From Aeropyrum pernix K1 (GTDB taxonomy: Archaea; Thermoproteota; Thermoprotei_A; Sulfolobales; Acidilobaceae): a DNA stretch of 32,000 nt. The notes under the pieces are model-generated. The model was not told the DNA's origin. It searched no databases and saw nothing but the letters and a program-made list of their open reading frames with translations. Every line of letters begins with the position of its first letter. Positions within the stretch are counted from its first letter, which is position 1. This document shows, piece by piece, positions 3,519 through 29,278 of this stretch. A program made the translations under genes and the position numbers. Where the stretch lies: contig NC_000854.2 in assembly GCF_000011125.1 (NCBI RefSeq), positions 960,001 through 992,000 on the forward strand. Reading direction: 5' to 3'.

Positions 3519-3668
3519 CGGCTAGGCTGCAATGCTGAAAAGGCTTCGGAGAATCAATTGAGAACTGGGCCAGCCCTCCTCCCCGCCCCGCCGACGGAGG
3601 GCGGTTGCCCGCGTCGATGAGGTGGGGAGCGCACGGGGCTGGCCATAGCTAGGTGACCCCGGGGCTTC

Positions 3669-19948: not shown

Positions 19949-20908
19949 CTACGCCCTCTCTGGGGTGCGCCTCCTCCGGGAGCCCGAGCCGGCCTCCTGG
20001 AGGATGTATGCGAGCGCTGCTATAACCTCTTCTATGAGCACCGTACCCTTGTACCTCCCATCCCTGTCAACCACTATCGCAGCCTCAGACTCGTACGTGA
20101 GCATCTTCTCCAGCATGTCGTCAACCCCCTCATCCTCCCCCACAACTGGCGCTTCCATATAGGCCAGCGTGTGGGCGGGGGTGGTTGAGAGGTCTACGCC
20201 CTCCTCTATAGCCTCCTCGAGCGAGTCTGGCGTTATAACACCTATGGGCCTCCCATCACCGTCTACCACGGGGACGACTGGTGCTCCCTTCTCCATGAGC
20301 TTCAACACACTCTCGGCCGGTGTGTCGTGCCTCACCGGCTTTATACCGCCGTCTGCAAGCTGCCCCGCGGTTATAGGGGGTTCGACGCCCTTCTCCCTCA
20401 ATATTGCCAGAAGCGCCTCGGCGTCCACAATCTCCCTCGGCGGCCTGTGGAGGAGCTGGCTCGAGTATATGGAGGTGTTGCCCGAGACTTCCCTAGCGAC
20501 TATCGATGCCAGGAGGCTCGGGGGGATTAGGAGGTAGTTGTTGCCCATCTCCGCCACCATGATACTCGTGGCTAGGGGGACTTTGGCTGCGGCTGCGAAG
20601 AAGGCTGACATGCCCAGGTAGGCGTAGGCCGCCGCGGGGAGGGGGGCCTGGGCCACCTCCTGTATCAGGGCGTAGAACGAAAGGCCTAGGAGTGCCCCCC
20701 CAAGGAGCCCCGGCGCGAAGACCCCGCCGCTCCCGCCGGAGCCTATGGAGAGGCTTGTCGCCGCTATCTTGAGGAGGCCGGCCGTAGCCAGGACTGTAAA
20801 CGCCCACAGGCCAGCCTCGCCAACGGGGATCCAGGAGACGGGTTCTCCCGATAGCACGGCGGCCAGCACGCCCCTGCCGCTTCCCGCGACGAACGGCGCA
20901 GCGTACAC
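19949..20908 (-). CDS. ClC chloride channel, C-terminal fragment (GxFxP motif plus two CBS domains)
   Basis: GSGGSGGVFAPGLLGGA (ClC GxFxP motif), further TM helices, then a CBS pair (ITAGQLADGGIKPVRHDTPAESVLKLM... / VVGEDEGVDDMLEKML...IVVDRDGRYKGTV). This is the continuation of ORF 20764..21840 in another frame. Confidence 0.8.
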   Translation of the reverse strand: MYAAPFVAGSGRGVLAAVLSGEPVSWIPVGEAGLWAFTVLATAGLLKIAATSLSIGSGGSGGVFAPGLLGGALLGLSFYALIQEVAQAPLPAAAYAYLGMSAFFAAAAKVPLATSIMVAEMGNNYLLIPPSLLASIVAREVSGNTSIYSSQLLHRPPREIVDAEALLAILREKGVEPPITAGQLADGGIKPVRHDTPAESVLKLMEKGAPVVPVVDGDGRPIGVITPDSLEEAIEEGVDLSTTPAHTLAYMEAPVVGEDEGVDDMLEKMLTYESEAAIVVDRDGRYKGTVLIEEVIAALAYILQEAGSGSRRRRTPERA

Positions 20909-21840
20909 CAGGAGGGAGAGGCCAGCCGCCCCAGCACCGGCCTTAGGGTACGCGGCAGGCCCAGGGACTCCAGCCTTCTAAAGCCTCTCTCCGACTCTCT
21001 GAAAATTCTCGCGTAGAGGTAGCCGAAGGGCGCGAGGAAGGCGCCGAGGAGTATGTAGCTTGCTATGGACTGGGGGCTGTAGAAGTCTGAGCCGTCGACG
21101 ACGAGCCTCGGCAGGGGCGGCTCGTAGCCCGCCACCGTGGCTAGGGTGTAGGCTGTTATGGAGGATACGAAGGCGGGGACGAGGGCCTGCACCTCCAGGT
21201 CCCTCTTGTAGAGGACCTCGGCGGCGAAGAAGGCGCTGCCGAGGGGTGAGTGGAATAGGGCTGAGAGGGCCCCCGACATGCCCGCGACCAGGGCTACCCT
21301 CCTGTCCTCTATCCTAAGCCTGAGAAGCCTAGCGATGGTGGAGCCTATCGAGGCGCCTATCTGGACGCTGGGCCCTTCTACACCGCCGCTCCCGCCCGTG
21401 CCCACGAGTATGGAGGAGGCGACAGCCTTGACAACCCCCGTCCTGAAAGGTATCTGGGCAGCCCTCCTGTGGAAAGCCTTCACAGCAGCATCCGTACCGT
21501 GGCCCTCAGCCTCCGGCGAGAACCTGTAGACTATCAGGGAGCTCACCAGCGCACCCCCGACTATCGCCAGGGGTGCGAGGAGGCCAGCCCCTCCTGCTCT
21601 AGACAGGACTAGGCCCAAGTCGCCTCCGGAAGCCTGGCCCGCCAGGAGGTAAGCCGTAAGCCCTGCCACCACGCCCAGTAGCCAGTAGAACGCCAGGGCC
21701 GCCGCCGCAGACGCCACTCCTATGGCGACGCCGAGCACGATCCACTTCTCCGCATACGCGGCCCTAGCCAAGAGGTGGGATAAACTGTAGCTGAGCCAGC
21801 CTGCAGCACGCCTGACCCCCTGCAACGATCCTCCACTCAT
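20764..21840 (-). CDS. ClC chloride channel, N-terminal fragment (reading frame lost near 20930)
   Basis: TM-rich. GTGGSGGVEGPSVQIGASIGS (ClC GSGIPE-type motif) and GMSGALSALFHSPLGSAFFAAEVL. The last ~55 codons (RLASPSWCTLRRSSREAAG...) look out of frame. Confidence 0.8.
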   Translation of the reverse strand: MSGGSLQGVRRAAGWLSYSLSHLLARAAYAEKWIVLGVAIGVASAAAALAFYWLLGVVAGLTAYLLAGQASGGDLGLVLSRAGGAGLLAPLAIVGGALVSSLIVYRFSPEAEGHGTDAAVKAFHRRAAQIPFRTGVVKAVASSILVGTGGSGGVEGPSVQIGASIGSTIARLLRLRIEDRRVALVAGMSGALSALFHSPLGSAFFAAEVLYKRDLEVQALVPAFVSSITAYTLATVAGYEPPLPRLVVDGSDFYSPQSIASYILLGAFLAPFGYLYARIFRESERGFRRLESLGLPRTLRPVLGRLASPSWCTLRRSSREAAGACWPPCYRENPSPGSPLARLACGRLQSWLRPASSR

Positions 21841-22114: not shown

Positions 22115-23074
22115 TTGGCACGTGGTGGTCTCGCGTTGAAGGACAGGTTTAAAGCCGCGGTTCTCTACGGCTGGAGGGAGCCGTTCAGGCTCGAGGAGTA
22201 CGAGGTGGAGCCCCCTGAAGGCTGGGTCCCTGTCGAGGTTAGGAGTGTTGGCATGTGCGGCAGGGATCTCGTTGTCTGGAAGGGAGGGTTCCCCAACCTT
22301 AAGCCCCCGCTGGTGCTGGGCCACGAGGTCTTCGGCCTCCACGATGGGAGGCCGGTCTCGGTCTATCCCGCCATAGCCGTCCCGGGGTGCCCGGACTGCC
22401 CTCCCTCGATACTGGGGGAGAACCTACCGGGGGGGTACGCCGAGAGGGTCTACGTGCCCCGGGAGAACCTCATACCCCTCCCCGACACGGATTTCAACAA
22501 GTACGCCGCCGCGACGTGCGGCGTGGCTACAATGATGCACGCTGCCAGCGTCGCCAGCGTGAGGCCAGGGGAGAGGGTGCTTGTGACCGGGGCCTCCGGG
22601 GGTGTAGCGCTCCACGGGATACAGTACCTCCAGCTCCTTGGGGCTGAGGTTGTGGCCTACACTAGGAGTAGGGAGAAGGCCAGGGTGCTCGAGGAGGAGC
22701 TTGGCGTCGAGGCTGTGACAAGCCTAGACTTCTACAGGGAGCGGGGCAGGGTTGATGTGGTCATGGAGACGGTGGGGGCGCCCACGATAAACGAGAGCAT
22801 GAGAGCCCTCCGCCCACGCGGCCGCCTAGTCCTAATAGGCAACATAACCGGGGAGCCAGTAACAATAAAGCGTCCAGCACTGCTCGTCATGAGAGAGATA
22901 ACAATATCAGGCACAGCAGCATTCACACGCAAAGAATGGGAGGCAGCCATAAAAACAATAGCCAAGGGAGGAGTCAAACCCTTCTACAAAGCATACAGAC
23001 TAGACCAGATAAACAACGCCCTAAAAGAAGCACTACAAGGCGCCAGAATCGGAAGAATAGTAATAAACCCCTAG
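22115..23074 (+). CDS. zinc-type alcohol dehydrogenase / MDR superfamily oxidoreductase
   Basis: 319 aa, TTG start. GMCGRD and GHEVFG zinc-site motifs, Rossmann VLVTGASGGVALHGIQ, typical C-terminus GRIVINP. Codon usage switches abruptly at about 22827 (see findings). Confidence 0.9.
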   Translation: MARGGLALKDRFKAAVLYGWREPFRLEEYEVEPPEGWVPVEVRSVGMCGRDLVVWKGGFPNLKPPLVLGHEVFGLHDGRPVSVYPAIAVPGCPDCPPSILGENLPGGYAERVYVPRENLIPLPDTDFNKYAAATCGVATMMHAASVASVRPGERVLVTGASGGVALHGIQYLQLLGAEVVAYTRSREKARVLEEELGVEAVTSLDFYRERGRVDVVMETVGAPTINESMRALRPRGRLVLIGNITGEPVTIKRPALLVMREITISGTAAFTRKEWEAAIKTIAKGGVKPFYKAYRLDQINNALKEALQGARIGRIVINP

Positions 23075-23180
23075 AAACCGGAAAGCCGAAACCACACAAC
23101 CAAACGCAAAACCAACAATCAACGCAGAAAGAAAAAGCCAAGCCAGACCAACCCGATTCACAGCCCACACAACACAGTAA
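23075..23180 (+). repeat. A/C-only low-complexity tract
   Basis: By hand count, only 4 T and 14 G in 106 nt (aaaccggaaagccgaaaccacacaaccaaacgcaaaaccaacaatcaacgcagaaag...), directly after the ADH stop. It continues the A/C skew of the ADH 3' end. Confidence 0.7.
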
Positions 23181-23830
23181 CATATAGCAGAGGAATTCTC
23201 GGTATTGCTTGTTTTCTTCTTAACAACAATTTAACAACAATATTGAAGTAATGCTCTTCAGCAGAAAGAAGCTTAATCATGTTTTCGGTAAAGATATGCA
23301 ATAAACATATACAAGCGCTCGCATATGCAATCACACCTTAAGTTAAGTTACTTTACAACAGATGTAATGGCACTGCATGCCTGAATCTTAAGAACTTCCA
23401 AAGATTGGCGTATAGCTAGGATTCTCAACTACTAACTAAATTTTTCATCTATTGTTTGCACGTAAAGGAATGCGATAGGTGCAAGTGTACTCTGACAGAA
23501 TGTTCCATTAACATTACCTTAGTAATCATAGACATTTATGATTAAGAGCATATATCGGCTATGTACTCTTTGTGGAGCCTCTCCTAATTGTTAAAAATTA
23601 AAAAGTAGCAAAGTAGAGTGAGATACAAAGTGCTTAAAGGGAGAGGGCCCGTGAAACCATAAGCTGATTTGCAAGTCGGCTTCTGTTCCCATCAGCAGAC
23701 CCCAATGCTTCACAGCAACTGTTAAATTATGCCTTGTAGATTAAGTCTAGCAGTTATAACATCTATTTTGAGTTGAAGCTGGATCGAGAAAATTTAAATA
23801 CTGTATAATAAATATATGTTAATGGTATCG

Positions 23831-23840
23831 ATTAATATAT
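23831..23840 (+). promoter_or_regulatory. TATA-like box plus SD-like GGTGA upstream of the island nuclease gene
   Basis: attaatatat lies ~30 nt upstream of the ATG at 23868. GGTGA at 23857..23861 lies 6 nt before the ATG. Confidence 0.35.
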
Positions 23841-23867
23841 GAAACTTTTTGAGTTGGGTGAATTCAA

Positions 23868-24707
23868 ATGAAATCCGAAATCGATAAGGATTTATGTATT
23901 TTAAATATCATATCAACAATACACAAAATAAAAAATAATATAAACAAATTCTATAATAAATTATCGCGCAATGAAGCATTGACAAGATATGTACTAATTG
24001 ATCCCTTCCTTCGAAGCATAGGCTGGGACCTGGGAAACCCCAAAGAAGTCATTCCAGAGTTTAGTACTGAGGTAGGTGTTCCAGACTATGCCCTTTTACA
24101 AGATGATAAATTATTCATGTTTATTGAGGCTAAAGCTCTTGGTAAAATAAAGGATGTTGATCAGGTTAAAGTCGTATCATATGCAGTCACAAAAGGTGTT
24201 CAATATCTTACGATAACTGATGGAGACTCATGGATAGTATATGACTTGTACCGTGAAGGAAATATTGAACAGAAACAAATATTAACGTGGAGTATGTCCA
24301 GCGACGATGCTGTTACTATAGCTATTAAGGCATTATTCATAGCTAACCTAAAACCCCCCATTCTATCTCTCTACAGAAGAGAAAGACAGCTTTCGGAGCT
24401 AGTCACTAAATCTACTGTAATTAAACTTGAACATGATAAAAATGTTCTAAGGAAAAAGTTTAAGGGGCCTATTACGTCAAAAACTGCTAGAGATATCATA
24501 TTAACGATATTGAAATCCGAAAAGAGACCTTTAAGCGTCAAAGAAATATTCGAACGCGCCCAAATAATGTTCGAGCCTACTGAAGAGGATAAGAAAGTCC
24601 TCTCTAATGGAGAAGTGAGATGGCAAAATAGAATAAGATGGGAACTTTCAAAGCTGGCTAAGGAAGGGCTAATAAAAAGAGTAAAAGAAGGCGTTTACAA
24701 GGCTTAA
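23868..24707 (+). CDS. HsdR-N-type PD-(D/E)xK nuclease fused to a C-terminal Mrr_N-like winged-helix domain
   Basis: 279 aa, AT-rich codons. NEALTRYVLIDPFLRSIGWD (HsdR_N signature helix), PD73 ... E87-A-K89, TITDGDSWIVYD. The C-terminal SVKEIFERAQ...SNGEVRWQNRIRWELSKLAKEGLIKRVKEGVYKA matches the Mrr N-terminal wHTH pattern. Confidence 0.85.
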   Translation: MKSEIDKDLCILNIISTIHKIKNNINKFYNKLSRNEALTRYVLIDPFLRSIGWDLGNPKEVIPEFSTEVGVPDYALLQDDKLFMFIEAKALGKIKDVDQVKVVSYAVTKGVQYLTITDGDSWIVYDLYREGNIEQKQILTWSMSSDDAVTIAIKALFIANLKPPILSLYRRERQLSELVTKSTVIKLEHDKNVLRKKFKGPITSKTARDIILTILKSEKRPLSVKEIFERAQIMFEPTEEDKKVLSNGEVRWQNRIRWELSKLAKEGLIKRVKEGVYKA

Positions 24708-24943
24708 TGCTAATACTTAAATGGATTATCAAATCTAATCTAATTTAAATTATTTAGTTAAATGAGCGATAAAACTAAACCTAAACATGGAGACGTTAAA
24801 ATGGGTTTGATACAATTATCCGAGGAGAATCATATTTAGTCAACTGAGATGCTAAACCCTCAACACTGTTAATTAGTGTATTTTTGATGCGGAGAGTCAG
24901 TGAGTGTGTTAGGTGGAAACTGTTATTTAATCTCCATGTAACG

Positions 24944-24955
24944 TATTATATATTA
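24944..24955 (+). promoter_or_regulatory. TATA-like box upstream of the putative antitoxin ORF
   Basis: tattatatatta lies 19-30 nt upstream of the GTG at 24974. GGTGG at 24962..24966 could be an SD. Confidence 0.35.
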
Positions 24956-24973
24956 GCAGACGGTGGTTTGATA

Positions 24974-25168
24974 GTGTCTTCGAAAAAGTCTAAGGTTAAG
25001 GTTGAAGTTGAGGTTGAAGTTCCCGAAGGCGATGATGAAGGCGTTTACAGGGAGGAATTTCGGAGAGAGCTAGCTAAGAGGATATTAAACGTAATGCTTG
25101 ACAAGGACGTGGAGCCAGCTAAGCGGGCTGTTGCCAAGACTTTGCGCGAGAAGGGCGGGGAGGGATAG
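24974..25168 (+). CDS. putative antitoxin partner of RelE (family not recognised)
   Basis: ORF open from 24884, but the first 30 codons look non-coding, so the GTG at 24974 is preferred (64 aa). It lies directly upstream (46 nt) and co-oriented with the RelE-like toxin. KVKVEVEVEV repeat, then an acidic/helical part (EEFRRELAKRILNVMLDK). Confidence 0.5.
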   Translation: MSSKKSKVKVEVEVEVPEGDDEGVYREEFRRELAKRILNVMLDKDVEPAKRAVAKTLREKGGEG

Positions 25169-25214
25169 CCCCGGCTACTAGCTGTATGCAATTACTTTCT
25201 GGTGTTAGGAAAGA

Positions 25215-25499
25215 TTGACAGAGGTCTATATAGAGAGTTCTGCAAAACGTGATTTAAAGAGGCTGCCAAAGCATATTGTCCAGTGGGTGTTAAACACTGT
25301 TGAGGAACTCGAGGAGAACCCGTTTATCGGCGAGAGGCTACATCTTCCAGCAAGCCTACATGGCTTGTACTGCTTTAAGCTAAGGCGAGGAGACTACCGG
25401 CTAGTCTACTGCTACGTTCCAAATCGAGACACAGTATATATCATCGCCGTTGGACACCGAGGCGAGATATACGAGAAGTTTCGAAGACGAATAAAATAA
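25215..25499 (+). CDS. relE: type II toxin, RelE/ParE (RelE/StbE) family mRNA interferase
   Basis: 94 aa, TTG start. Family pattern YIESSAKRDLKRLPKHIVQWVLNTVEELEENPFIGERL...LRRGDYRLVYCYVPNRDTVYIIAVGHRGEIY. Confidence 0.9.
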   Translation: MTEVYIESSAKRDLKRLPKHIVQWVLNTVEELEENPFIGERLHLPASLHGLYCFKLRRGDYRLVYCYVPNRDTVYIIAVGHRGEIYEKFRRRIK

Positions 25500-25686
25500 C
25501 GCACTGAATCCAATTATAAACATTAGTGATAAGTGATAATTTTAAATTTAAATTCTGCAGGATAGAACTCCGGGAGGTTGGTTATTATAGAGGCCTATCT
25601 GTGCAAGAGCTGTTCTTTCTGTGCTTCATATTCTTTTTCGGGTATAGAGTGCCAAAGAATCAAGCAGATATAGTTGAGGCAAACGC

Positions 25687-25929
25687 CTAATGCCCTAGGA
25701 GCCTCCAGAGGGTTACCCTGCTTACCCCCGCAAGTTCTACTACTTGTTTTCTACCGTGCTTTTCTACTACTCGTCTGAGGATACGGTATCGGGCGTCCTC
25801 TCTAAGCCTTGCCGGGTCAACAGCCTCCCACCACTCCCGCCTATCAGGCATGACTACCACTCCTGATGTTTCACCATGCATCATGAAACTGAAACATTCG
25901 GGGTTATATATTTCTAACCATCGCTTCAC
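25687..25929 (-). CDS. small HTH-containing ORF, possibly a truncated remnant (integrase or regulator N-terminus?)
   Basis: 80 aa from a GTG only 20 nt downstream of the tRNA-Gly 3' end on the same strand. It ends just after a helix-turn-helix (VVELAGVSRVTLWRLLGH*). Intermediate GC. Confidence 0.45.
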   Translation of the reverse strand: MKRWLEIYNPECFSFMMHGETSGVVVMPDRREWWEAVDPARLREDARYRILRRVVEKHGRKQVVELAGVSRVTLWRLLGH

Positions 25930-25948
25930 GATGATGAAGAGGTGTTTG

Positions 25949-26027
25949 TGGTGCGGCCGCCGGGATTTGAACCCGGGACCACCGGCTTGGGAGGCCGGCG
26001 TCCTAGTCCAGGCTAGACGACGGCCGC
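25949..26027 (-). tRNA. tRNA-Gly (anticodon CCC), CCA encoded, no intron
   Basis: Hand-folded cloverleaf on the minus strand: acceptor GCGGCCG/CGGCCGC, D-arm GTCT-AGCCTGGACTA-GGAC, anticodon arm CCGGC-CTCCCAA-GCCGG, variable TGGTC, T-arm CCGGG-TTCAAAT-CCCGG, discriminator A, CCA. Confidence 0.95.
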
Positions 26028-27491: not shown

Positions 27492-27953
27492 TTGTCTTTC
27501 CGTGTAGACTTCGATTCTGGGGGTTGTTTGGCGAGGGTGAGGTATGAGAGGGCCCCGGACGTGTGCCGGGCCGCTGAGGTCCTCGTAGACGCTCTCGGAC
27601 TAGACTATATCGACGTCTCCAGGGTGTACTGCGTGAGGAGCTGGGGGAGTAGGGGGAGGGCTTATGCGAGGATCTACGGGACGCCGGGGGCTTGGGCTGC
27701 GGCCCTCGGCTATAACCCCGGCTACGTTATAGAGGTTGTCTCGGAGAAGTTCGACCCTCTGCCACTGGAGGAGAAGGTTAAGGTCGTCATACATGAGCTG
27801 CTCCACATACCCCGCACCTTCAGCGGCGGCCTCAGGGCCCATGGCCCCCTGGTTAACGGGAGGAGGGTTGCAGCGCTGTACAGGAGGGTCAGGGGTGATG
27901 CCAGGGTTATGGGCATCCTCCGCGAAGCCTTGGATGGAGGCCCTCAAGAATAG
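27492..27953 (+). CDS. predicted zinc metallopeptidase (HExxH), COG4900-like
   Basis: 153 aa, TTG start. VKVVIHELLHIPRTFSGGLRAHG contains HELLH plus a downstream His. Family assignment is from memory only. Confidence 0.65.
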   Translation: MSFRVDFDSGGCLARVRYERAPDVCRAAEVLVDALGLDYIDVSRVYCVRSWGSRGRAYARIYGTPGAWAAALGYNPGYVIEVVSEKFDPLPLEEKVKVVIHELLHIPRTFSGGLRAHGPLVNGRRVAALYRRVRGDARVMGILREALDGGPQE

Positions 27954-28626
27954 CTCCCAGCAGGGCCGCGGCCCCGGCCATGGCGAGAATGGCCAGCTTC
28001 CCAAGCCCCCAGCGTAGCCCGGCCTCGCGGCCCTCCCTGGCCACGACACCCGGCTCCCCTGCATCCCCTTTAGCGGTGCTGGCGGCTGTGGCCCCGTCCT
28101 GCCGCTCCTGGAGGGTTATGAGGAGGATGGCGTTGCCTGGGCTTAGCGTTACCGTGGCGGCCATTATCTCCCCTGGCTCCGGCTGGGCGAGTGTTAGCAT
28201 GCCTTCGAGGTCTAGGAGGACCTCAGCCGCTCCATCCCTGCAGTAGACTCTGGTGTAGCCGAGGGCTATCTCCCTCACCCCAAGGCTGCCAAGGTAGGCG
28301 TGTACATCGGGGGTGAGGTCCTCGCAGCCCTTGGGAGGGGTTGTGCGTAGCCTGAGCACGCCGTCCTCCTTCTCCACGTCTACCTCGAGGCCGTTGCTAG
28401 CTAGTATGATGGCGGTGAGCCCTCCAGGCAACGGCGTCCTGTAGCTCTCGCGGTAGACTAGGTCCTGGGGGGAGTATACGAGGCCCCGGCCTCCCGGGAG
28501 CTCTAGGGTGGTGACCCCGCCGGGGAGGTTTAGGGTTAGCCCTTCCCCAGCCGCCGAATGATGAGCTGGCCCTGTCGCCAGAAGCAGGATTGCCAGGAGC
28601 AGGGGGAGAGCGGGCCTATTCTTCAA
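27907..28626 (-). CDS. secreted / C-terminally membrane-anchored hypothetical protein
   Basis: 239 aa. N-terminal signal-like MKNRPALPLLLAILLLATGPAHHSAAG, C-terminal TM LGKLAILAMAGAAALLGAILEGL. 47-nt convergent overlap with the HExxH gene. Confidence 0.6.
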   Translation of the reverse strand: MKNRPALPLLLAILLLATGPAHHSAAGEGLTLNLPGGVTTLELPGGRGLVYSPQDLVYRESYRTPLPGGLTAIILASNGLEVDVEKEDGVLRLRTTPPKGCEDLTPDVHAYLGSLGVREIALGYTRVYCRDGAAEVLLDLEGMLTLAQPEPGEIMAATVTLSPGNAILLITLQERQDGATAASTAKGDAGEPGVVAREGREAGLRWGLGKLAILAMAGAAALLGAILEGLHPRLRGGCP

Positions 28627-29278
28627 CAGACTTTACCTCCTCCTCCAACGCCAGGATGTACTCGAGGAGCTCGACGGGGGTTAGGACGGTGAGCCCCAGG
28701 TCCTCCGCGGCCCTCCTAAGCCCCTCATCGCTCGTGACAATAGCGGCCCCCAGCTCGAGGGCGAGGAGGAGGGTGTCAACATCCTCGACACTGTCTAGCA
28801 TCCCCTTCCTAGTGTACTCCCTGTATTTCTCCCTGAGCGACCTGACTATATCACCCTCCTCGTCCCGGCTCCTAAGCGCCCTCCTCACGTGATCCTCAGC
28901 CACCCTAAGCCCCTTGTCGAGCCTGGCCCTAACGGTCTCCACATACCTTCTGAACATGGCTGCTGGGAGGCGCAGCTCATGCGTGGTGGGCGGCTTAACC
29001 CTCACCCACGCCATAAGCCTGGCAATGGTTGTAGGGTGCACGCCGTTCCCCAGCATGAACCTCTCTATCTCAGCCCTGACGCTAGGAGTTATGTACACCG
29101 TCAGCCCCATCCTGGAAGCCCGGGCCAGTATCCTAGCCATTATCCTGGCAGCCTCCTCCAGGCTCCTGGCCCCGAGGACCTCGCGCAGCTTGGCGTCGGT
29201 AAACATGGTCGTGTCTGCCACCACAACGCTGCCCACGCTCGGCGGAGGCCTCCCGCCCACGCCAGCCACCCCCTCCAA
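28616..29278 (-). CDS. RNA ligase partner protein (PIN-like domain, MJ_0950 family)
   Basis: 220 aa, immediately downstream of the RNA ligase gene on the same strand. PIN-like acidic residues (VVVADTTMF ... DSVEDVDTLLLALELGAAIVTSDEGL). Confidence 0.8.
   Translation of the reverse strand: MEGVAGVGGRPPPSVGSVVVADTTMFTDAKLREVLGARSLEEAARIMARILARASRMGLTVYITPSVRAEIERFMLGNGVHPTTIARLMAWVRVKPPTTHELRLPAAMFRRYVETVRARLDKGLRVAEDHVRRALRSRDEEGDIVRSLREKYREYTRKGMLDSVEDVDTLLLALELGAAIVTSDEGLRRAAEDLGLTVLTPVELLEYILALEEEVKSVEE

Follow-up and report, generated by a model that had tools for sequence, protein, structure and literature searches.

A candidate single-chain restriction enzyme of Aeropyrum pernix that joins an HsdR-type nuclease domain to an Mrr-type winged helix

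What does a solitary gene do that lies in DNA of foreign composition and is listed in the databases as a 'hypothetical protein'? The question is raised by APE_1558 of Aeropyrum pernix K1, which is encoded in a stretch of 32 kb of the chromosome (contig NC_000854.2, positions 960,001 to 992,000; here called the window). The open reading frame (ORF) starts with ATG, comprises 279 amino acids (aa) plus a stop codon, and is 100% identical to the APE_1558 entry. An earlier note on this DNA, made from the sequence alone, took the product for a stand-alone nuclease with a rearranged, Mrr-like architecture. The explanation that now fits best is that APE_1558 is a single-chain endonuclease, independent of nucleoside triphosphates (NTPs) and probably modification-dependent in the manner of type IV/IIM enzymes. 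This explanation, which draws on sequence comparison and predicted structure, is given about an even chance of being correct.

The N-terminal part of the protein is homologous to the nuclease domain of type I restriction subunits. Pfam places HSDR_N at residues 72-130 (E 6.2e-7; 29.9 bits against a curated cutoff of 25.1), and a profile of 35 sequences matches the nuclease domain of EcoKI HsdR with 96.7% probability and E 3.6e-10 in hhalign, E. coli K-12 proteins serving as the type specimens for the domain tests. In this alignment, D73, E87 and K89 of APE_1558 fall on D298, E312 and K314, the catalytic residues of EcoKI HsdR. The same profile finds the V. vulnificus HsdR structure 3h1t (E 2.5e-6), with the NE.., aDY, vEaK and TnG motifs in register. 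Residues 35-54, which the earlier note had read as the opening helix of HsdR_N domains, do align to this helix of EcoKI HsdR and 3h1t through the pattern NEALTRY..IDP.LR..GW. The codon positions it gave for P72-D73 and E87-A-K89 are exact when checked against the sequence, and the PD-(D/E)xK site that it placed there is borne out both by the register with EcoKI HsdR and by conservation among relatives. A sequence search of the PDB with the whole protein returns chance matches only.

Structure prediction supplies a fold for this domain. The AlphaFold2 (AF2) model of the N-terminal domain was run alone with a deeper alignment, as the two-domain model, with its floppy linker, gave weak Foldseek E-values. 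It reaches a predicted local distance difference test score (pLDDT) of 96.5 and a predicted template-modelling score (pTM) of 0.91, and it shows the alpha-beta-beta-beta-alpha-beta order of the restriction-endonuclease fold, with a long leading helix at residues ~11-34. The top Foldseek matches in the PDB are DrdV, BpuSI, HsdR 3h1t and 3ijm, a protein with a restriction-endonuclease-like fold, all at probabilities of 0.99-1.00. For instance, the nuclease domain of the type IIL enzyme DrdV (7lo5) is matched with E 1.8e-4 and a template-modelling score (TM) of 0.55, the type IIG enzyme BpuSI with a probability of 1.00, and 3h1t with a TM of 0.52. Moreover, the PADLOC profile REase_MTase_IIG matches the N-terminus with E-values as low as 2e-5, over profile positions ~12-146 of more than 1000. 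Pfam, hhalign, and AF2 combined with Foldseek are all positive, both for the PD-(D/E)xK fold and for the winged helix that follows it. From these matches we infer that the N-terminal domain is a Mg2+-dependent nuclease of the type I HsdR/type IIG clade.

Hjc resolvase and Cas4 are among the lower-scoring Foldseek matches, and they speak for a rival explanation. According to this, APE_1558 would be a modification-independent nuclease whose winged helix reads sequence or structure, either a solitary or selfish site-specific endonuclease or an enzyme of repair or recombination, such as a junction or flap resolvase. The top fold matches, however, are restriction nuclease domains and not resolvases, and the explanation is regarded as unlikely, though deserving of real weight.

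The enzymes that share this nuclease domain are built differently from APE_1558. Type I HsdR subunits (EcoKI, EcoR124I and V. vulnificus 3h1t) have a homologous nuclease domain, with the catalytic D/E/K in register and a matching fold, but they are of ~1000+ aa and carry an SF2 translocase/helicase, whereas APE_1558 has 279 aa, no helicase or ATPase match in Pfam and no HsdM or HsdS in the window. Type IIG/IIL enzymes (DrdV, BpuSI and the MmeI family) provide the nuclease modules that are the best structural matches to the N-terminal domain. In them, methyltransferase and target-recognition domains are fused to the nuclease, while APE_1558 has no methyltransferase match in Pfam and a winged helix as its DNA-binding part. 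A scan of the 26 other ORFs of the 32 kb window found no DNA methyltransferase, HsdM/S or helicase, in agreement with the earlier claim that the window holds no methyltransferase, HsdM/S, helicase or ATPase partner.

The catalytic site is conserved throughout the family, as counted in 163 retrieved relatives. D73, Y74 and K89 are present in all of them and E87 in 150, and the TDG..W motif, which had been pointed out downstream of the PD-(D/E)xK site, is likewise conserved. The 13 relatives without E87 all have Gly at this place and all have Glu at alignment position 95 (GAKxLGxxE), a position at which 107 of the 150 relatives that keep E87 have Leu. Relocation of a catalytic carboxylate occurs in some PD-(D/E)xK enzymes, and the Glu at position 95 looks like such a relocated catalytic acid. 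This argues that nuclease activity is under selection, since the catalytic Glu has been moved in these relatives and not lost. The E87-less subclade (e.g., P0007 and P0026) includes members with Mrr_N as well as with RAMA.

These residues also bear on the proposal that the nuclease-like domain of APE_1558 is degenerate and the protein regulates by binding DNA, without catalysis, or that the gene has lost its function in A. pernix and survives as a remnant. The surrounding island does look decayed, with no integrase or att site and ~790 nucleotides (nt) of non-coding AT-rich DNA upstream of the gene. On the other side, the catalytic residues are all intact in APE_1558 and conserved across the 163 relatives, the Glu is relocated in the subclade that lacks E87, and the ORF is not truncated and can be aligned with its homologues from one end to the other. 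Such a regulator or remnant is therefore considered extremely unlikely.

The C-terminal part belongs to a different family. In the full-length AF2 model, two confident domains (residues ~10-160 and 196-279) are separated by a disordered segment (162-195), and the pLDDT of the C-terminal domain is ~87-93. Residues 211-278 match Pfam Mrr_N with E 7.1e-11 and 42.6 bits, above the cutoff of 29.5, and the profile of this domain, made from 19 sequences, matches residues 12-81 of E. coli Mrr with 85.9% probability and E 5.2e-6 in hhalign. In Foldseek, the domain resembles the small winged helices Rpa2-WH and Z-alpha, with a TM to target of 0.76-0.84; compared with PDB sequences, its profile finds no significant solved relative. 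The earlier assignment of the last ~80 aa to the N-terminal winged helix-turn-helix (wHTH) of Mrr agrees with this homology, which extends over the C-terminal 84 residues.

E. coli Mrr is annotated as a methyl-directed type IV restriction enzyme (EcoKMrr; see also PMC3874153). Its reader domain is homologous to that of APE_1558, and both proteins are single polypeptides without a methyltransferase partner; the reader is N-terminal in Mrr and C-terminal in APE_1558. The catalytic modules are different, as the N-terminal domain of APE_1558 reaches only 0.35% against the Mrr catalytic domain in hhalign, and Mrr_cat (PF04471) has no Pfam match in APE_1558 even at E<=1. The swapped domain order and exchanged catalytic module described previously are thus upheld. 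The name 'permuted Mrr', correct in both of these respects, is nevertheless a less useful frame than 'DpnI-like order from different modules', because enzymes with a PD-(D/E)XK nuclease and a winged helix (wH) have already been characterised (PMC11037411).

According to that paper, DpnI, FcyTI and Psp4BI are PD-(D/E)XK-wH endonucleases that are single-chain, NTP-independent and usually without an adjacent methyltransferase, and the dependence of DpnI and FcyTI on N6-methyladenine (6mA) has been shown (PMC11037411). The DpnI family has the same size class (~250-280 aa) and the same order as APE_1558, with an N-terminal PD-(D/E)xK nuclease followed by a winged helix. In Foldseek, the whole APE_1558 model aligns to DpnI 4esj with a probability of 0.80, but the TM over the whole chain is only ~0.2. 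Membership in the DpnI family was considered and rejected: there is no sequence match (phmmer on the PDB at E<=10; both domain profiles at E<=1), and characterised members are ~58% identical to DpnI. DpnI recognises Gm6ATC, and APE_1558 is built instead from a nuclease of the HsdR/type IIG clade and a winged helix of the Mrr_N type.

Other type IV fusions of reader and nuclease include wH-HNH, wH-GIY-YIG, PLD-wH, SRA-HNH and RAMA fusions (PMC11037411). They follow the same combinatorial principle, and one relative from the nuclease clade of APE_1558 bears RAMA instead of Mrr_N. The pair of HsdR-type nuclease and Mrr_N is not among the architectures given in the available part of PMC11037411. 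The principle of coupling a reader to a nuclease is established, and APE_1558 reveals no new principle of defence; what is new is this particular pair, which belongs to an uncharacterised thermophilic archaeal clade. In effect, the pair adds one combination of modules to the catalogue of combinatorial type IV designs.

As a modification-dependent endonuclease, APE_1558 could work in the following way. The C-terminal Mrr-type winged helix would dock on DNA and most probably read a modified base, while the flexible linker of ~35 residues would tether it to the nuclease, which would cut nearby. The active site would be formed by E36, E64, D73, E87 and K89 and would depend on Mg2+. The nuclease would probably be dimeric for double-strand breaks, possibly by means of the long N-terminal helix. 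Host DNA would be spared because it is without the mark, so that no cognate methyltransferase would be needed, which is the type IV/IIM logic of Mrr and DpnI. A cognate methyltransferase is present neither in the window nor in most of the homologue contexts.

Dependence on modification is suggested because Mrr is methyl-directed, because DpnI and FcyTI are 6mA-dependent (PMC11037411), and because RAMA is an alternative partner of the nuclease. For RAMA, and for HARE-HTH, which is related to Mrr_N, a role in reading modified DNA has been put forward and partly demonstrated (PMC6591016; PMC11037411).

Several points count against a modification-dependent enzyme. The specificity of Mrr_N/HARE-HTH-type domains is disputed, with 6mA given in PMC6591016 and cytosine modifications suggested in PMC11037411. 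The latter also states that the binding of RAMA to 6mA was not reproduced. A winged helix can bind DNA by sequence alone. At two loci (L009 and L099), a homologue immediately precedes, in the same orientation, a system that includes an adenine methyltransferase; this adjacency would suit a nuclease that depends on 6mA poorly and suggests some other relationship. Defence, toxin-antitoxin (TA) or mobile-element genes occur in ~7 of the 13 homologue contexts, a small sample with no statistical control. Neither an integrase nor att repeats are found on the A. pernix island, which may be a remnant in decay. Finally, a literature search found no paper on APE_1558 or on the pair of HsdR-type nuclease and Mrr_N, a pair already visible in the automatic Pfam annotations of database entries.

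The explanation by a modification-independent nuclease gains from the fact that winged helices are generic DNA binders. Moreover, the N-domain family is huge (980 clusters at E<=1e-10) and has mostly Pfam-less C-termini, so it is not tied to known modification readers, and its phage-encoded relatives are annotated merely as 'endonuclease'. Yet an unregulated sequence-specific nuclease without a methyltransferase would poison its host, and the C-terminal domain is specifically of the Mrr_N type and no generic wHTH. Nor does a housekeeping repair enzyme agree well with a gene that is patchily distributed, foreign in composition and set in varying contexts of the defence type.

About 13 distinct contexts of homologues with the full architecture were compared, and no neighbour gene is conserved across them. 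The homologue stands beside SocA/Panacea in Sulfolobales (L001), beside PIN in Infirmifilum (L010) and beside TnpB at L004 and L005. In the Marsarchaeota loci L002, L009 and L097, its neighbours are a type IIG-like adenine methyltransferase and an HKD-Snf2 helicase, and at L095 a DrmC-like PLD nuclease and a nucleotidyltransferase are found near it. Metabolic, regulatory or unknown genes surround it at L003, L006-L008, L096, L098 and L100. The homologues are thus not consistently placed in housekeeping operons, a setting that the earlier note had treated as decisive against a defence role; their contexts are variable and often include TA, restriction-modification (R-M), Hma, PLD-nuclease or TnpB genes.

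Comparison of closely related copies illustrates this variability. L096 and L009 are 98.8% identical until ~240 nt past the gene and unrelated thereafter, the methyltransferase/helicase module being absent from L096. Similarly, a stretch of ~1.1 kb that includes the gene is 93% identical between L098 and L099, which differ beyond it. At L006 and L007, the gene has a GC content of 40% inside flanks of 54-57%. Differing flanks of near-identical copies and a foreign GC content are typical of a mobile gene carried on islands; a housekeeping operon would not be expected to show them.

The position next to methyltransferase genes is the basis of a further rival, in which the protein would serve as the subunit for cleavage or sensing in an R-M-like system of several genes, together with a neighbouring methyltransferase and helicase, the A. 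pernix copy having been orphaned by the loss of its partners. In the Marsarchaeota loci, the homologue immediately precedes, in the same orientation, the IIG-like methyltransferase, which appears to lack the usual nuclease, and the HKD-Snf2 helicase comes next. At L009 (9992..17455, equivalent to L097), the methyltransferase has 1075 aa and is followed by an HKD(PLD)-Snf2 helicase of 1052 aa. No IIG-type N-terminal nuclease is detectable in this methyltransferase, since its PADLOC IIG match starts at profile position ~210. A related nuclease hidden at its N-terminus was also considered and rejected, as hhalign found nothing. The L009 arrangement could be a split three-gene system, or merely an indel hotspot in a defence island.

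At L099 (4871..13205), the homologue is upstream of, and co-directional with, an Hma-like operon that encodes an HmaC/DUF499-like ATPase (E 2e-21), a PglZ-like protein and an HmaB/DUF1156 adenine methylase (E 6e-34). It is the second case, independent of the first, in which a homologue adjoins a system with an adenine methyltransferase. Type IIG and type I enzymes use the same nuclease fold in cis, which likewise favours a subunit. Nevertheless, the same Marsarchaeota protein, with upstream DNA that is 98.8% identical, occurs without the module at L096, and it is found elsewhere at L003-L005. Most contexts have no methyltransferase, and A. pernix has no partner gene. In addition, the two systems that adjoin homologues differ between lineages, which is what residence in the same defence islands would lead one to expect. 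A subunit role is accordingly judged quite unlikely.

Another alternative is an abortive-infection or toxin-like effector, whose winged helix would sense an invader cue, not necessarily a base modification, and release non-specific DNA degradation. TA genes adjoin the gene in three lineages, namely ParE/RelE in A. pernix, SocA/Panacea in Sulfolobales and PIN in Infirmifilum, and the last ~40 residues of APE_1558 match the wHTH of AbiEi weakly in PADLOC (E 1e-3). The AbiEi matches are, however, marginal and concern the generic wing only, the nearby TA genes make complete pairs of their own, and no cognate antitoxin or regulator is conserved beside the gene. This alternative is held to be very unlikely.

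The family to which the N-terminal domain belongs is widespread. An exhaustive search gives 3626 clusters at E<=1e-3, and nearly all clusters found cover residues ~12-160 only. An Mrr_N-type C-terminal domain is present in 20 of the 163 relatives. A Pfam scan of 140 relatives detects HSDR_N in 139, Mrr_N in 20, and RAMA, ParB-HTH, HhH and ankyrin in one each; MmeI_N is matched by three relatives. In ~115 of the 140, a C-terminal region of ~150 aa has no Pfam match. These proteins, mostly of ~300-330 aa, come from Dehalococcoidia, Thermoplasmata, Caldarchaeum and others (P0011-P0017; loci L018-L088), and their C-terminal regions may hold undescribed domains, one or several, that bind DNA or act as readers.

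The full architecture of HsdR-type nuclease and Mrr_N is found only in thermophilic archaea and hot-spring metagenomes (Aeropyrum, Sulfolobales, Infirmifilum and Marsarchaeota), and relatives of the N-terminal domain alone are common in Dehalococcoidia, Thermoplasmata and Caldarchaeum. Some phages and plasmids also carry N-domain relatives, annotated as 'endonuclease' or 'type I restriction endonuclease'. A viral origin of the gene was rejected, as no relatives are found on IMG/VR viral contigs and the phage and plasmid records carry N-domain relatives only.

APE_1558 also makes clear that the type I/IIG nuclease cassette moves about as a building block in its own right. More tentatively, and less likely than not, APE_1558 may represent a widespread family that combines a single nuclease cassette of the HsdR/type IIG type with DNA readers that can replace one another. 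The set of readers would consist of Mrr_N in thermophilic archaea, of RAMA, ParB-HTH and HhH in rare cases, and of the ~150-aa C-terminal domain in more than 100 clusters, mainly of Chloroflexota, Thermoplasmata and Caldarchaeum. If this is true, the Pfam-less C-terminal domain could be a new class of modified-DNA reader, and if the family is modification-dependent, its Mrr_N members would be hyperthermostable type IV/IIM enzymes of new specificity.

For APE_1558 itself, activity and modification dependence would make it a compact hyperthermophilic single-chain restriction enzyme of 279 aa and a potential epigenetic tool. It would also offer a simple system in which to settle what Mrr_N/HARE-HTH winged helices recognise, 6mA or modified cytosine. 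This question extends to human ASXL1 (PMC6591016 and PMC11037411). The features of the gene and its surroundings are collected in Table 1.

Table 1. Positions of APE_1558, its domains and key residues, and neighbouring features, numbered from the first letter of the window
Feature	Coordinates	Strand	Evidence
APE_1558 coding sequence	23868..24707	+	ORF list; 100% identity to K1 entry; homologues 37-68% identical, motifs kept
PD-(D/E)xK nuclease domain, HsdR/type IIG kind, residues 8-162	23889..24353	+	Pfam HSDR_N, hhalign, 3h1t, AF2, Foldseek
E36, invariant Glu, first core helix	23973..23975	+	163/163 relatives
E64, Glu ending first strand	24057..24059	+	160/163 relatives
P72-D73 (cca gac), 'PD'	24081..24086	+	D73 163/163; aligns with EcoKI HsdR D298
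E87-A88-K89 (gag gct aaa), '(D/E)xK'	24126..24134	+	K89 163/163, E87 150/163; aligns with E312/K314
T117-D118-G119, after fourth strand	24216..24224	+	T 157/163, G 162/163; aligns with 'TNG' of 3h1t
Flexible linker, residues 163-195	24354..24452	+	AF2 pLDDT <50 over 162-195; length and sequence vary among homologues
Mrr_N-type winged helix, residues 196-279	24453..24704	+	Pfam, hhalign, AF2, Foldseek
R251-W252, start of third helix	24618..24623	+	R and W invariant in homologue alignments A2 and A5
TTTAAATA, candidate archaeal TATA box	23793..23800	+	Read from sequence
GGTGA, Shine-Dalgarno-like element, 6 nt before ATG	23857..23861	+	Read from sequence; putative
Low-GC island, ~2.8 kb	23075..25948	.	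Composition profile; between ADH gene and tRNA-Gly
Small acidic ORF before ParE/RelE toxin, 64 aa as called in public assemblies	24974..25168	+	
ParE/RelE-family toxin, 94 aa	25215..25499	+	Pfam E 7e-12
80-aa ORF adjoining tRNA-Gly	25687..25929	-	Weak resolvase/homeodomain-type HTH matches, E ~4e-3
tRNA-Gly(CCC), island boundary	25949..26027	-	tRNA call and Rfam

The island that carries APE_1558 differs sharply in composition from its surroundings. Across ~23000-25500, the GC content is 0.34-0.41, compared with ~0.60-0.65 in the flanks and ~60% in the genome. No ORF of the island other than APE_1558 reaches 110 aa, in keeping with its previous description as the sole long ORF of the AT-rich core. 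Horizontal acquisition is the best explanation for the island. A repeat finder, a pattern search allowing 3 mismatches and local alignment detected no att repeat derived from the tRNA at its left edge, and no integrase is present in it; the island is consequently not delimitable as an integrase-type element.

In the Rfam scan of the island, the tRNA is the sole match. From the end of the ADH gene to the start of APE_1558 (23075..23867), ~790 nt of AT-rich sequence are free of Rfam matches and of ORFs of 60 aa or more; they could derive from a decayed gene or serve as a long leader or regulatory region. The gene had been credited with its own TATA-like box and a GGTGA Shine-Dalgarno element. 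Both strings are present, but as evidence of a promoter and a ribosome-binding element they are weak, because TATA-like strings are frequent in DNA of 35% GC.

A TA pair, formed by the small acidic ORF and the ParE/RelE toxin of Table 1, lies directly downstream of APE_1558. The GC content of this region is ~0.41-0.48, between the values of the island core and the genome. The 80-aa ORF next to the tRNA gene is possibly, judging from its HTH matches, a remnant of a recombinase or regulator. At L008, a 53-nt stretch (3566..3619) shares 81% identity with the T-arm and acceptor, the 3' half, of the window's tRNA-Gly. It lies at a contig end, ~140 nt downstream of the closest homologue (68% identity), and is preceded by AT-rich non-tRNA sequence; ARAGORN and Rfam make no tRNA call on it. 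This stretch may be the remnant of an att site, which is a weak hint.

Outside the island, the window has a housekeeping character, with genes for TmcA, an acylaminoacyl peptidase, an ABC transporter, a CLC channel, ADH, MBL, an RNA ligase, RFC, TIM and radical-SAM enzymes. The CLC chloride-channel gene occurs as two overlapping ORFs, 19949..20908 (-) and 20764..21840 (-), one of which covers positions 1-210 of the Voltage_CLC profile and the other positions 218-345 plus CBS. This split represents a real frameshift or a programmed event and no sequencing error, because it is also found in independent Logan assemblies of A. pernix. Beyond the tRNA-Gly gene, a PIN_5 ribonuclease is encoded at 28616..29278 (-), and an ORF at 27492..27953 (+) matches 'putative phage metallopeptidase' (Pfam E 1e-24), a similarity which hints that there may be another virus-derived gene near this tRNA.

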